The position numbers were made by a program, and so were the translations under genes. This document shows positions 13,635 to 23,437 of a DNA stretch of 64,000 nt, one piece after another (the stretch's first letter is position 1; the number at the start of each line of letters is the position of its first letter). Under the pieces are notes generated by a model. It ran no database searches, was not told where the DNA came from, and saw nothing but the letters and a program-made list of their open reading frames with translations. This DNA comes from Candidatus Brocadiia bacterium (GTDB lineage: Bacteria > Planctomycetota > PUPC01). The DNA is taken from assembly GCA_030605345.1 (NCBI GenBank), contig JAUWIN010000002.1:1672-65671 (forward strand), read 5' to 3'.

Positions 13635-13663
13635 TTGACACATGTCTCTTTCGCGCGTATCAT
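13635..13663 (+). promoter_or_regulatory. sigma70-like promoter TTGACA-17-TATCAT ~145 nt upstream of TIR gene
   Basis: Read directly: ttgacacatgtctctttcgcgcgtatcat. Confidence 0.4.
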
Positions 13664-13806: not shown

Positions 13807-14745
13807 TTGTCTGACTGTGTACCAAGCGCCGTGACTCAGAAGTGGGATGTCTTCATTTCCCACGCGTCTGAAGACAAGGAGAGCTTTGTACGCCCCTTGG
13901 CTATCGCGCTGCGAAGACTCGACGTTTCGGTGTGGTATGACGAGTTCTCATTGCGGGTGGGCGACAGCATTTCCGGCGCCATCGACAAGGGGCTTGCGGA
14001 GTCCGCGTACGGTCTTGTTGTGATCAGCCGAGCGTTCATTGAGAAGCCTTGGCCCAAGCGCGAACTCCGTGGTCTTGTCACGAGGGAAGTTGGAGGCCGC
14101 AAGGTCATCTTGCCAATATGGCATGGCCTCACGCACAGGGAAGTCATGAAGTTCAGCCCGCCGCTCGCCGACGCGCTGGCAATCGACACTGCCAAGGTAA
14201 GCCCTCAAGATGCAGCAATTCAGATCCTGCAAGTTGTTCGGCCAGACCTCTATAATGGGCACCCACGCTCTCAGCTTGAGAAGTTGGCTACTGGTGAAGC
14301 CATCACAGACCTACAGCGAGAGGTCGAACGAGCCCGCGCAGAACAAGAAGCCTTGCGTGAAGAGCTATCTGAATATCAATGCCCCTACTGTGAAGCGCCG
14401 CTAGCTATCAGGGTCGATGCGCCAGTTGACGAGGAACAGAAGCACTGGGACATGCGCGAGGCCTACGAGTGCGGCTACCAGTGTTTTGGCGGCTCCATGG
14501 AGAGGCCGTGCCCAGCCGACCCGAAGTCCCCGAAGTTCGAAGATTACGAGTTGCGGTTCACCGAGGACCCCGAGGAGCCGAAGTGGTGCTGCCACGCAGT
14601 GCCCAAAACGTATATGGCCCGACTTTTGTGGCTATCATCGGGTTACGGCGCCACAAGGAAGGAAGCGGAACGCTCTGTGCGGGATCAATACAACGCATGT
14701 GCCCGAAGAGCGCGCAAGCAGCCGGGCAACGGTGGAACGCAATAA
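13807..14745 (+). CDS. TIR-domain protein with C-terminal coiled-coil and Cys-rich (zinc-ribbon-like) extension; ThsB-like
   Basis: WDVFISHASEDKESFVRPLAIALRRLDVSVWYDE ... SRAFIEKPWPKRELRGL: canonical bacterial TIR motifs including conserved Glu; TTG start with AGAGGG RBS; C-terminal CPYCEAP...YECGYQCFGG...CPADP...WCCH. Confidence 0.8.
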   Translation: MSDCVPSAVTQKWDVFISHASEDKESFVRPLAIALRRLDVSVWYDEFSLRVGDSISGAIDKGLAESAYGLVVISRAFIEKPWPKRELRGLVTREVGGRKVILPIWHGLTHREVMKFSPPLADALAIDTAKVSPQDAAIQILQVVRPDLYNGHPRSQLEKLATGEAITDLQREVERARAEQEALREELSEYQCPYCEAPLAIRVDAPVDEEQKHWDMREAYECGYQCFGGSMERPCPADPKSPKFEDYELRFTEDPEEPKWCCHAVPKTYMARLLWLSSGYGATRKEAERSVRDQYNACARRARKQPGNGGTQ

Positions 14746-14781: not shown

Positions 14782-15948
14782 ATGGTTGCGAGCAAAGCGG
14801 AAAGAGACCTGGTGCTATTCCTCGGTGCAGGCTTTTCGCGCGATGCTGGCCTACCTATCATGAGCGAGTTCGGAGCGAGTTCGAGAAGAGCCTACAGGCG
14901 CTGCAGAATGAAGCAGGACAGACGCGAAATGGGGCCTATTTACGTCAAAGCTGGCGCGGTATTCAGAAAGTTTCAGCAGTTCTGCAGCCGTGGGGGTTCC
15001 GTGCTGAGCATCGACCACGACAATATGGAGGTCGTCTTCTGTGTGGCAGAGGCCCTGCGCCAAACGTTGGGTTCATCAGCGAAGATCCTGCGGTCATACG
15101 GCAGGGATTACACTGCCGCTGAGGTGTATGAACAGATCCAAGTGTGGCTGTGGAAGATGTACCAAGTTAATCCCTTGCCCAGGGATTGGCGGCAGAGCCG
15201 CTACACAACATTCGTGAAAGCGCTGAAGAACGCGAAAGCACCAGAGAAAGTTGCGGTTATAACTACCAACTACGACCTGGTCTTCGAATCATTCGCTTGG
15301 AGAGTGGGGCTGCCGTGCGAGTATGCTGTAGCCAATTCTCGGCGCATATCTGGAGGAGGACGCACTGAATCGTATTTGGCCAGCGGGCCCGGACCCCGCC
15401 CTTTGCTCGTGTGCAAGCTTCACGGCAGCATCAATTATTTCACCGATTCAGGAGAAGACGAACAGCTCTTCATCTGCGACGACGTCCTCAAGAGCGGCGA
15501 CTACGTCACCGAGGATGGTAGAGTCAGGCATGGAGGCACAGAGCGGCCTTGGGTTCTCTCCTTTGACGCGGTAACCCGGCTGCGCAGGAAATACAAGGGG
15601 GATTTCGTGCCCGCCCTCATTCCCCCTACCTACGGTAAGCTGGAGCAATTCGATTGGCTGAGACGCATCTGGAGAAGTGCATTTGATGCACTCAGGTCTG
15701 CCAAGAAGCTTGTATTCATTGGATATAGCATGGCTGAGAGCGATGGTCATTTGCGCGCCATGATACAATCGGCCATGTCCAAGCGCACGCTGGCTAGTCC
15801 GCCCGAGGTCTACGTTTTTGACCCGTCACCTGAAGCGCTGGTGCGGTATCGTCAGTTCTTTGCTCCTCTGAAGTTAGCCTCGGCCCAACACCTCTGGGGT
15901 ATGGATTTCGCAACCACCTGCGACACAAAGCTTCCGGACGTGCTGTAG
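14782..15948 (+). CDS. SIR2-like (SIR2_2 family) NAD-dependent effector-type protein, no SLOG domain
   Basis: LFLGAGFS...GLP N-terminal motif, ITTNYD, CKLHGS (His), VFIGYSMAESD motifs all match SIR2_2/ThsA-N-terminal family; AGGAGAG RBS; 36 bp downstream of TIR gene. Confidence 0.75.
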   Translation: MVASKAERDLVLFLGAGFSRDAGLPIMSEFGASSRRAYRRCRMKQDRREMGPIYVKAGAVFRKFQQFCSRGGSVLSIDHDNMEVVFCVAEALRQTLGSSAKILRSYGRDYTAAEVYEQIQVWLWKMYQVNPLPRDWRQSRYTTFVKALKNAKAPEKVAVITTNYDLVFESFAWRVGLPCEYAVANSRRISGGGRTESYLASGPGPRPLLVCKLHGSINYFTDSGEDEQLFICDDVLKSGDYVTEDGRVRHGGTERPWVLSFDAVTRLRRKYKGDFVPALIPPTYGKLEQFDWLRRIWRSAFDALRSAKKLVFIGYSMAESDGHLRAMIQSAMSKRTLASPPEVYVFDPSPEALVRYRQFFAPLKLASAQHLWGMDFATTCDTKLPDVL

Positions 15949-16235
15949 GGTCGAAATCTTGCGCTGCCGCGAGCGATGTTATTATGGGCAGTGGGACGGG
16001 CGCAGAGCTGCCAAATTCGTCGTTGCTCGCGCCAGTCGGACATGGCCGCGATGTGGCGCAGCTCTTTTTCGGTGACGGGGTCGTGACCGTTGAGGCTCTT
16101 GGGAAGGAAGAGCATGTCTTCCTGGATGTCGGGGGCTAGGAGAAGCAGGTTCATGATTTGCGTTAGTCGTGCGCGGGAGACGTGGCTGAGGCGCGCGAGG
16201 TCGGCGTACTCGCGGCCTTTGCCACACCACCCCAT
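15949..16235 (-). other. Possible remnant ORF carrying a ParB-type helix-turn-helix (LARLSHVSRARLTQIMNLLLLAPDIQEDMLFLP)
   Basis: HTH pattern resembles ParB/Spo0J SRSHVANLLRLLKLP..VQ; ORF is short, lacks the rest of a ParB nuclease domain and overlaps the SIR2 3' end, so likely a degraded mobile/plasmid gene. Confidence 0.2.
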
Positions 16236-16446: not shown

Positions 16447-16713
16447 TCAATCGGGCTGGCCTGATGCGTTGAAGAACTCCCGCAGCATGAGCTTCAGAGC
16501 TCTCTTGCCCGCGGTCTTCTTGAAGTATTTCTCGCGACGTTCCGCATCTTTGCGATTGCTAAATGCCTCGTAGAAGATCAGCCTGACGGGCCTTCGGCCC
16601 TTCGTGGACGCGACCTGCCCTTTCCTGTGACGCTCCACCCGTTTCTTCAAATCGGAGGTGTAGCCGGTGTAGAGCTTCCCATCGCCACAAAGAAGCACAT
16701 AGACATAATACAC
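16447..16713 (-). CDS. GIY-YIG nuclease family small protein
   Basis: MYYVYVLLCGDGKLYTGYTSDLKKRVERHRKG...: GIY-YIG catalytic motif and conserved Arg/His, 88 aa. Confidence 0.7.
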   Translation of the reverse strand: MYYVYVLLCGDGKLYTGYTSDLKKRVERHRKGQVASTKGRRPVRLIFYEAFSNRKDAERREKYFKKTAGKRALKLMLREFFNASGQPD

Positions 16714-16831: not shown

Positions 16832-16918
16832 TGGCTCCTCGGGTAGGACTCGAACCTACAGCCTAGCGGTTAATCCGCCTCCGGCGGACCGCTCTACCAA
16901 TTAAGCTATCGAGGAAAC
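16832..16918 (-). tRNA. tRNA gene, class II (long variable arm); anticodon tentatively GGA (Ser) with encoded CCA
   Basis: Minus-strand cloverleaf readable: U8, D-loop A14/G18G19/A21, anticodon stem GTCCG/CGGAT, T-arm GTAGG-TTCGAGT-CCTAC, 7-bp acceptor with one mismatch, G73, CCA; anticodon loop CCGGAGG is atypical (C33). Confidence 0.6.
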
Positions 16919-22942: not shown

Positions 22943-23437
22943 ATGCGAAAAATCATGGTGGACCTCCAACTGTGCATGGGCTGCAACAGTTGCGAGATTG
23001 CCTGCGCAGTTCAGCACTCGCAAAGCGGTGATCTCTTCGAAGCGTTGAAAGAGCCTGTCCTGCCCGGATACCGCCTGCGAGTGAGGGCAAGCTACGGGAT
23101 GCCGTTCCCGCTGCGCTGCGAGCAGTGCGAGGACGCACCCTGCATCGATGCCTGCAAGAGTGGTGCAATGGCCCGCGACCCGGAGACCGCCTCGGTGCAG
23201 ATCGATGAAGACAAATGTGTGGGGGGCTGGATGTGCGTGATGGTCTGTCCATTTGGAGCGGTTTTCCCTGATATGGAAAGGGGCAAGGCGGTCAAGTGCG
23301 ACCTTTGCCGCGGGCACGAACGGCCCGCCTGCGTGGACGCCTGTCCCACCAAAGCCCTGAGCTACGTCGAGCCGGACGAGTTCGCCGCCCGGTACATGCG
23401 CGCCGAAGCCGCAAAGACCTCAACGGAGGCTGAGTGA
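22943..23437 (+). CDS. cooF: CooF-like 4Fe-4S ferredoxin-type electron transfer protein
   Basis: CMGCNSCEIAC, CEQCEDAPCIDAC, CVGGWMCVMVCP, CDLC...CVDACP cluster motifs; follows cooS. Confidence 0.75.
   Translation: MRKIMVDLQLCMGCNSCEIACAVQHSQSGDLFEALKEPVLPGYRLRVRASYGMPFPLRCEQCEDAPCIDACKSGAMARDPETASVQIDEDKCVGGWMCVMVCPFGAVFPDMERGKAVKCDLCRGHERPACVDACPTKALSYVEPDEFAARYMRAEAAKTSTEAE

Follow-up and report, generated by a model that had tools for sequence, protein, structure and literature searches.

Analysis of a 64,000-nucleotide (nt) stretch of DNA from a Candidatus Brocadiia bacterium (contig JAUWIN010000002.1; hereafter the window) revealed a forward-strand gene whose product joins an N-terminal TIR domain of the AbTir class, a long predicted helix and a C-terminal domain with four essentially invariant cysteines, referred to here as the Cys4 domain or, by its predicted position on the stalk, the head. 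The reading that we put forward, tentatively and at slightly less than an even chance, is that of a stand-alone NAD+ hydrolase (NADase) borne by mobile elements, whose assembly is gated by the predicted zinc-binding head. Mobile defence genes probably reuse the Cys4 domain for control or sensing; that it belongs to a Thoeris system is less likely. The gene and its parts are as follows.

13807..14745, + strand: gene of the TIR/helix/Cys4-domain protein, 312 amino acids (aa), TTG start
13840..14241, + strand: TIR domain, AbTir/TcpB/PdTIR class, residues 12-145 (Pfam, PADLOC, phmmer, Foldseek)
14062..14064, + strand: codon of E86, the equivalent of the AbTir catalytic Glu E208 (HMMER alignment)
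14296..14370, + strand: single long predicted helix, candidate coiled-coil stalk, residues 164-188 (AlphaFold2, full-length model)
14371..14526, + strand: predicted zinc-ribbon-like lobe, residues 189-240 (AlphaFold2, Cys conservation, sub-threshold Pfam matches)
14380-14382, 14389-14391, 14470-14472 and 14509-14511, + strand: codons of the invariant C192, C195, C222 and C235, respectively
14527..14706, + strand: predicted lobe resembling HicB and the double-stranded RNA-binding domain (dsRBD), residues 241-300 (AlphaFold2 secondary structure, local Foldseek matches)

The segment 14290-14745, for which a C-terminal extension had been proposed in a preliminary description of this DNA, encodes residues 162-312 of the open reading frame (ORF) 13807-14745 (+), that is, its 3' half. 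An AGAGGG motif, read from the sequence, lies 8-13 nt 5' of the TTG start. An alternative GTG start at 13831, eight codons past the TTG, would give 304 aa; the identical 312-aa product is present at NCBI, and close relatives are annotated as 304 aa from the downstream GTG. All the strings quoted in the preliminary description were located (LQREVERARAEQEALREELSEYQ at residues 168-190, CPYCEAP at 192-198, YECGYQCFGG at 220-229, CPADP at 235-239 and WCCHAVP at 260-266), and the layout it proposed, a TIR domain followed by a helix and then by a conserved, folded Cys-containing domain, was borne out.

Its assignment of the N-terminal half was likewise correct, as Pfam TIR_2 covers residues 15-138 with a score of 69.5 bits against a cut-off of 28 (E 4.7e-19). 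A phmmer search of PDB sequences with the TIR domain retrieved AbTir (E 3.9e-43; ~55% identity), BtTir (4.9e-40), BtpA/TcpB (~1e-38) and PdTIR (1.8e-36). The top 21 Foldseek matches of the full-length model were all AbTir, BtTir, TcpB/BtpA or PdTIR, with 45-55% identity, E 2e-12 and target-normalised template modelling (TM) scores of 0.63-0.79. ThsB structures appeared neither among the 50 listed Foldseek matches nor among the phmmer PDB hits of the TIR domain. In AbTir, E208 is the catalytic residue, W204 is involved in cyclisation, and the BB loop comprises G174-L177 (bioRxiv 10.1101/2022.05.07.491051). Besides E86, the HMMER alignment revealed equivalents of W204 (W82), K202 (K80), S143 (S21) and the BB loop G174-L177 (G52-D53-S54-I55). 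Retention of the catalytic Glu, the cyclisation Trp and the BB loop places the domain in the AbTir class and, judged by these residues, predicts that it is NADase-competent.

This class assignment bears on what is unusual in the protein. The preliminary description had compared it with ThsB, usually a TIR-only protein. AbTir-class proteins normally bear an N-terminal coiled coil that contributes to dimerisation, so that a TIR-only protein is the wrong baseline. A TIR domain with a coiled coil is the norm for the class, and the novelty here therefore lies in the reversed order of the two and in the added zinc domain. The NADase activity of AbTir-class proteins requires self-association into a head-to-tail assembly through the BE interface.

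The candidate stalk follows the TIR domain. The full-length AlphaFold2 model predicts a 25-residue helix at residues 164-188, with a predicted local distance difference test (pLDDT) score of 89-97 over blocks of 10 residues. The helix is amphipathic, and an a/d hydrophobic pattern (I165, L168, V172, A175, L182, L186, Y189) can be read from its sequence; relatives hold 25-100 aa of helix at the equivalent position. The coiled coil proposed at first thus corresponds to one helix with a suitable heptad pattern, and the wording that fits the single-chain model is a single predicted helix.

A word-indexed search with the tail of the protein returned four relatives, and a profile of those four recovered 53 more (57 in all). 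A HMMER scan of 1.84e9 representative proteins then gave 221 clusters at E <= 1e-3, of which 181 also passed E <= 1e-10. Among the 160 relatives that cover all four positions, 157 have C192, C195, C222 and C235 together. C262 is present in 144 of 160 and is replaced in the other 16 by A, S, V, G or T, as expected of a buried small residue rather than a ligand. The remaining cysteines and histidines of the region, which has eight Cys and two His, are not conserved (C226, C261, C298, H213, H263). The Cys clustering reported earlier is therefore real, while the label Cys/His-rich gives way to Cys4, because only the four cysteines are essentially invariant. An alignment of 45 sequences disclosed nine invariant residues (C192, C195, C222, G223, C235, P236, P242, T268 and A287), and the core motifs RPCPxDPxFPxFEDYEL, K/R-T..A and GxGxTxEEA are strongly conserved. 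On this otherwise rigid core, the variable parts are the first hairpin, which also carries indels, and the beta5-beta6 loop. Mean pairwise identity over 17 full-length TIR-fused relatives was 52% for the TIR domain, 38% for the stalk and 36% for the C-terminal domain. Residues 150-312 gave nothing above threshold in Pfam, NCBIfam, PADLOC or PHROGs, a profile search of PDB sequences with the Cys4 domain returned noise alone, and a literature search for proteins combining TIR, zinc ribbon and coiled coil found no description of it. The Cys4 domain family appears to be undescribed in these four databases.

AlphaFold2 predicts that the C-terminal domain is confidently folded, with a pLDDT of 94.5 and a predicted TM score (pTM) of 0.79; all five models reached at least 93.5, and the same secondary structure appeared within the full-length model. 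The predicted domain has ~115 residues and two lobes packed together. Neither of the two outcomes that the preliminary description had named as refuting it, a disordered region lacking clustered cysteines or an extension not shared by homologues, was obtained. Lobe 1 comprises, in order, a CPYC knuckle, a beta-hairpin (198-206/214-220), the ECG motif, a mini-hairpin (225-227/230-233) and the RPCP motif. The two beta-hairpins are predicted to follow each other directly, and none of the four invariant cysteines is more than 2-3 residues away from a hairpin base, a placement that brings the four together and is consistent with one Zn(Cys)4 site. We infer such a single site from the predicted hairpin topology and the conservation. 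The first knuckle is a canonical CPxCG and the second pair, C222/C235, is split around the mini-hairpin. Sub-threshold Pfam matches of single members fell almost exclusively in zinc-ribbon families (Zn_ribbon_3 in 17 of 45 members, Ogr_Delta in 11, Zn_Ribbon_1 in 11). No member exceeded a curated zinc-ribbon cut-off; the best Zn_ribbon_3 match was 5.8e-5 in one member, and that of the window protein was 0.0087. The term zinc-ribbon-like, used in the preliminary description, is reasonable in view of the knuckle, the Pfam hints and the hairpin bases, but what it named is not a bare ribbon: it is part of a two-lobed domain.

Lobe 2 follows with DPxFPxFEDYEL, three strands (247-253, 260-266, 279-281) and a helix (284-300) that begins with GxGxTxEEA, giving a beta-beta-beta-alpha order. 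A Foldseek search of the C-terminal domain against PDB returned no global match and none at E <= 0.001. Local matches of lobe 2, over ~55 residues, were to the solved dsRBDs of mL44, MLE, Loqs/Dicer, Rnt1p and PACT-D3 (probability 0.6-0.75, E ~1). In BFVD, matches over ~55 residues were to phage proteins labelled HicB family, RNase III dsRBDs and small uncharacterised phage proteins (probability up to 0.99, E >= 0.16). Pfam HicB and dsrm were not matched at E up to 10 by the window domain, nor are they among the 25 families found most commonly in the 45 members. The resemblance of lobe 2 to HicB and dsRBDs is thus one of predicted fold alone.

Zinc ribbons and dsRBDs are classical nucleic-acid binders, and DNA or RNA binding had been among the functions first suggested. 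A domain combining the two could detect phage double-stranded RNA or DNA, or could target the TIR domain to NAD-capped RNAs, from which AbTir can remove nicotinamide. The local fold matches of lobe 2 to dsRBDs point the same way, as do two members labelled automatically by JGI as RNA-binding Zn-ribbon (DUF1610). The GxGxT(K/R)xEA motif also appears to resemble the GxGxSKKxA region of dsRBDs. Against this stands the charge of the domain. All 45 aligned domains are acidic, with net charges of -10 to 0 (mean -5.2) and isoelectric points of 4.5-6.9 (mean 5.2), and the consensus (TxEEA) has Glu in place of the dsRBD-type lysines, so that direct nucleic-acid binding is unlikely. Furthermore, dsrm was not matched even at the permissive threshold given above, and relatives fused to a helix-turn-helix (HTH) domain already have a DNA-binding domain. 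We give nucleic-acid recognition the slimmest chance among the functions considered here. The other two roles first suggested, those of infection sensor and oligomerisation element, are plausible.

Comparison of relatives disclosed that the Cys4 domain is shared, behind a coiled coil, by proteins with quite different N-termini of kinds typical of effectors or outputs, so that a search for homologous C-terminal domains on other effectors was answered in the positive. Architectures were counted over 163 relatives with a complete Cys4 domain, and in all of them the domain lies at or near the C-terminus, after a helix. The N-terminus is a TIR domain in 37, an XRE-HTH in 38, an unannotated ~190-aa domain in ~20, and a transmembrane helix with a coiled coil in ~13. 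DUF4365, HNH, Mrr_cat, YhcG PDDEXK, DUF4062 and SMEK_N occur in smaller numbers, and 35 of the 163 are truncated or have just a short helical N-terminus.

Two of these architectures deserve a comment of their own. The ~190-aa N-terminal domain carries a conserved GWxFNxIES motif and no Pfam match (L009 5419-6348, L012 5428-6345, P0066, P0069, P0083 and others; ~20 clusters), and it possibly represents another effector or DNA-binding module still to be characterised. Membrane-anchored versions (P0003, P0129, P0140, P0149, P0158, P0166, P0168, P0175, P0182) have one N-terminal transmembrane helix, 80-100 aa of coiled coil and the zinc domain, an arrangement that suggests the head can also control a membrane-acting output.

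The range of partners raises the prospect of a wider role. The Cys4/HicB-like module could be a new portable sensor of conflict systems, reporting one conserved cue through a coiled-coil stalk onto any output, be it a TIR NADase, a nuclease from any of four families, a set of helices that disrupt membranes, or an XRE repressor of mobile elements. The cue could be a small-molecule or nucleotide signal, or a conserved protein of invader or host. If true, the module would be comparable to CARF, SAVED or STING, and an AbTir-class, 2'cADPR-forming TIR domain would here be under the control of that cue. We regard this generalisation as unlikely. A reading of the domain as a receptor of a small-molecule or nucleotide signal, functionally analogous to CARF, SAVED, STING or SLOG, seems quite improbable to us. 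A receptor would account for fusion to the same range of outputs (TIR, nucleases, transmembrane helices, HTH), and this range mirrors that of known cyclic-nucleotide sensor domains. The conserved R233, K/R240, K/R267, T268 and R272 could form a phosphate-binding pocket, and a core so well conserved is easier to reconcile with a ligand that does not change than with a phage protein that evolves fast. However, no enzyme that could generate such a signal, whether CD-NTase, Cas10, a second TIR or the like, is conserved beside the gene, and the domain occurs just once in the window. Anionic ligands would sit poorly with its acidic overall charge, and the fold comparisons returned none of the known nucleotide sensors. 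A homotypic adaptor, with a second domain copy on a partner protein, was considered separately and rejected, as the 64-kb window contains no other copy and each related locus gave one hit.

The family is rare and is found on mobile elements. Eight loci were detected in 185,579 species genomes, from Rhizobiaceae, Nitratireductor, another alphaproteobacterium, Verrucomicrobiota, Acidobacteria and Myxococcota. Five PLSDB plasmids, all conjugative, carry it: Agrobacterium tumefaciens pAt2, two of A. vitis, one of Rhizobium and one of Cupriavidus. A phage origin of the Cys4 domain was rejected, as 50,697 phage genomes, IMG/VR and PHROGs gave no match.

Neighbouring genes were surveyed over 80 metagenome loci, 54 of them of the TIR class, and no neighbour family recurs in more than three loci. 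Genes encoding the TIR-zinc-domain protein were found with PIN/VapC, AbiEii and IS110, and with the toxin-antitoxin genes PIN and PhdYeFM. In a Rhizobiaceae metagenome-assembled genome (L005 2946-7575), the gene lies inside a conjugative type IV secretion region, between a VirD4/TraG-like coupling protein, accompanied by a small ribbon-helix-helix-like ORF, and a VirB11-like ATPase. The pAt2 copy is near DUF6088 and a pair formed by an AAA ATPase and an S8 peptidase. HTH-fused members adjoin an integrase and Prim-Pol, a transposase, or VWA/ARPP-1 and a methyltransferase. Judged by these neighbours, the genes stand by themselves, unaccompanied by any conserved partner, and their settings are those of defence islands, conjugative plasmids and integrative elements.

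Two further features of the relatives were observed. Members of a Nitratireductor-like sub-clade share a gene of 305 aa that runs into the start of the gene for the TIR-zinc-domain protein (L007 4571-5485; L070 394-1311; L071; L072), which may be a clade-specific two-gene arrangement. Several homologues have a frameshift or stop that separates the TIR part from the remainder of the protein (L001 5715-6612, L004 1214-2105, L007 5482-6387, and the six metagenome loci L026, L030, L043, L049, L051 and L089); this could reflect assembly error or the recurrent inactivation of a toxic gene.

Three features together suggest that the head is a regulatory or sensory part: the layout of effector, stalk and small zinc head, the fact that the effectors vary, and the dependence of AbTir-class enzymes on induced self-association. 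The protein would be a self-contained NAD+-consuming module of immunity or abortive infection, in which the helix dimerises the chains and the zinc-stabilised head stands at the end of the stalk. At rest, head and stalk would hold the TIR domains out of the head-to-tail assembly required for catalysis. Binding of a trigger would re-arrange or cluster the heads, the TIR domains could then assemble and cleave NAD+ to nicotinamide and ADP-ribose (ADPR) or its cyclic form 2'cADPR, and depletion of NAD+ would stop the invader. The trigger is most likely a protein, possibly a basic one, of an invading phage or plasmid, because the surface is acidic and a variable hairpin is displayed on a conserved scaffold.

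Several points weigh against the gated-NADase reading. The defence role of the protein is deduced from genomic context, zinc binding and the cysteine geometry of the head are predicted, and the fold matches of the Cys4 domain are local and statistically weak (E >= 0.16). Absence from the phage databases fits an origin in hosts or mobile genetic elements and offers no hint of the trigger. In addition, the core motifs are better conserved than is usual where a protein sensor takes part in an arms race; CapRel and RAZR vary most in their sensors. A strongly conserved core fits a fast-evolving protein sensor less well, which keeps alive both the receptor of an invariant ligand discussed above and a scaffold that senses nothing.

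In the latter case, helix and zinc domain would form a constitutive oligomerisation scaffold that replaces the N-terminal coiled coil of AbTir, TcpB and PdTIR and holds TIR, nuclease, HTH or transmembrane modules as dimers or tetramers. AbTir-class TIRs self-associate and dimerise through their coiled-coil domain, the core of the Cys4 domain is conserved over unrelated architectures, and XRE-HTH regulators, which make up the 38 HTH fusions, typically need a dimerisation domain. HicB N-terminal domains are known to oligomerise, and one of the Foldseek matches of lobe 2, PACT-D3, is a dimerising dsRBD. Yet every architecture has a coiled coil ahead of the domain as it is, which would make a metal-dependent module of 115 residues serving oligomerisation alone redundant. 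An unregulated AbTir-class NADase would also be toxic, given that AbTir expression suppresses the growth of E. coli, and variable hairpin surfaces are unexpected in a pure scaffold. We consider a passive scaffold unlikely, though less so than the other alternatives to the gated NADase.

The gene immediately downstream in the window encodes a SIR2 protein, which raises the question of a Thoeris-type pair. The neighbouring features are as follows.

13635..13663, + strand: sigma-70-like promoter candidate, TTGACA-17 nt-TATCAT, 11 of 12 consensus positions, ~145 nt upstream of the TIR start
14782..15948, + strand: SIR2_2-only gene, 388 aa, 36 nt downstream of the TIR gene (Pfam SIR2_2, E 5.3e-12)
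15958..15973, + strand: terminator-like hairpin just past the SIR2 stop (consensus scan)
16447-16713, - strand: GIY-YIG nuclease ORF, 88 aa, directly beside tRNA-Ser (Pfam, E 1.3e-16)
16832-16915, - strand: tRNA-Ser(GGA)

The TIR and SIR2 genes lie on the same strand, the consensus scan placed no terminator-like site between them, and a promoter-like site upstream together with a terminator-like site after SIR2 alone indicates that they are probably co-transcribed here. The promoter candidate is a consensus match, with two such sites found where 1.5 were expected, and is weak evidence. The same TIR-SIR2 arrangement occurs in one relative that is at least 90% identical (L021). These observations, the match of the protein to the PADLOC ThsB1 model (E 1e-34) and the fact that type VI Thoeris does signal through 2'cADPR, which AbTir-class TIRs make, are what speaks for a non-canonical two-gene Thoeris-type system, in which the TIR domain would be a ThsB-like signal generator, SIR2 the effector and the zinc domain the infection sensor.

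The ThsB models give no uniform picture, as the NCBIfam model of Thoeris type III ThcB4 scored 16.9 bits against a cut-off of 220. The remaining evidence argues against such a pair. The best PADLOC match of the protein is the single-gene candidate PDC-S66 (E 3e-60), not ThsB; that profile is aligned through its C-terminal TIR half alone (profile positions 144-280 of 282), and the literature searched on PDC-S66 yielded only a passing mention in one unrelated paper. No SLOG, Macro or other domain for ligand sensing can be recognised in the SIR2 protein, which matches neither the PADLOC ThsA model nor any NCBIfam model, those of Thoeris included; besides SIR2_2, only a sub-threshold match to DUF4917 was found. 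Nor is the pairing conserved. Among the TIR-class metagenome loci, 45 have a downstream ORF, and a SIR2 relative was adjacent at none of these; a distant SIR2 relative lay nearby, on the opposite strand, at one of the 80 loci. By tblastn, loci L001-L012 contain no SIR2 relative; none is annotated next to the Agrobacterium plasmid copy (L024), and the relatives of SIR2 itself, at 56%, 41% and 38% identity, are not accompanied by a TIR gene. On these grounds SIR2 was rejected as a conserved partner of the TIR protein, and the ThsB/Thoeris frame in which the gene was first placed is not supported. We conclude that TIR and SIR2 are two single-gene NAD-targeting modules sharing a small island, and a Thoeris-type pair is very improbable in our estimate. 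The operon-like arrangement could reflect a local functional link, and this is one more point to be set against the gated-NADase reading, in which SIR2 would be a second, independently evolved NADase module and not a dedicated effector of the TIR protein.

A search with SIR2 gave 321 hits at E <= 1e-5, a sizeable family of SIR2-only proteins of ~390 aa that occur alone in defence islands; one relative (L022) lies between an MmeI-type restriction-modification system and Hachiman HamA/HamB. The SIR2 gene of the window may by itself form an NADase module of defence. The island extends from ~12.9 to 16.8 kb, has a slightly lower GC content and ends at the GIY-YIG ORF and tRNA-Ser. The lower GC content, and the position of the nuclease ORF beside the tRNA gene, suggest that the TIR/SIR2 pair is in a tRNA-inserted island. 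An Rfam scan of the flanks found tRNA-Ser alone, and a further non-coding RNA there was rejected. A 127-aa ORF at 15852-16235 (-), which overlaps the 3' end of SIR2, carries an HTH/ParB-like motif (ARLTQIMNLLLLAPDIQEDML) and has no Pfam or NCBIfam match; it may be the remnant of a mobile-element gene. Elsewhere in the window, ARAGORN placed a tRNA-Ile(GAT) at 23233-23317 (+), with its anticodon at position 38; at 85 nt, it is unusually long for tRNA-Ile.

How stand-alone TIR NADases of the AbTir/TcpB class are switched off and on is a question that the head domain could address, and systematic Thoeris surveys explicitly exclude stand-alone TIRs. The head could explain the control of an enzyme class that makes 2'cADPR, an immune signal of both plants and bacteria. 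As a compact, conserved unit on a stalk that is predicted to be stabilised by metal, reused on nucleases, membrane anchors and repressors, it offers a testable handle, and its ligand, once identified, would define a new input module for single-gene immunity. Homologues are carried by cultured hosts, among them Agrobacterium tumefaciens Gle002 on pAt2 (WP_174113216.1) and A. vitis on plasmids. General importance is limited by the rarity of the family, with 221 clusters in 1.84e9 representatives and eight loci in 185,579 species genomes.

Among known systems, AbTir, BtTir, TcpB (BtpA) and PdTIR are the closest in the TIR domain, sharing the conserved catalytic Glu, Trp, Lys, Ser and BB loop, and they too are stand-alone proteins with an adjoining helix of coiled-coil type. 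In the window protein, however, the TIR domain is N-terminal and the helix follows it, and the Cys4 domain is found in none of the solved members of that family. The likeness to Thoeris ThsB consists in a TIR protein, matched by the PADLOC ThsB1 model, in a defence-like context beside a SIR2-domain gene; it differs from ThsB/ThsA in a SIR2 protein devoid of SLOG or a ThsA signature, in a pairing that is not conserved, and in a TIR domain much closer to AbTir.

For the head, the classical zinc ribbons (Zn_ribbon_3, Zn_Ribbon_1, Ogr_Delta, Cys_rich_CPXG), which gave sub-threshold matches in 9-17 of 45 members, share the N-terminal CPxCG knuckle followed by a beta-hairpin; in contrast to theirs, the second ligand pair is not a CxxC knuckle but consists of single cysteines 13 residues apart that flank the mini-hairpin. 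Lobe 2 shares with HicB N-terminal domains and dsRBDs its strand and helix order and the GxGxTxEEA motif before a long helix, in addition to the local Foldseek matches, but it is fused to a zinc lobe, is acidic, has no profile match and was seen with no HicA-like partner gene.

Two phage-sensing proteins provide the nearest parallels in design. In CapRel SJ46, a C-terminal pseudo-zinc-finger is both an autoinhibitor and the sensor of a phage capsid protein. Like the window protein, CapRel begins with a toxic enzyme and ends, after helical connectors, in a small beta domain that resembles a zinc finger and varies more than the enzyme does. Its enzyme is RelA/SpoT-like and its domain has lost the cysteines, whereas the window domain keeps all four, and no sequence or fold match links the two; autoinhibition is a feature of CapRel that we propose here by analogy. 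In RAZR (PD-T7-4), a zinc-finger domain binds phage ring proteins and drives the activating oligomerisation of a HEPN RNase. RAZR likewise combines, in a single protein, a zinc domain and an effector that requires oligomerisation, but its zinc-finger domain is N-terminal, its effector is HEPN, it has no HicB-like lobe, and no homology was detected. On our reading, the window protein represents a single-chain effector-plus-sensor type of immunity built on an AbTir-class TIR domain, new in its reversed order and in its zinc domain.

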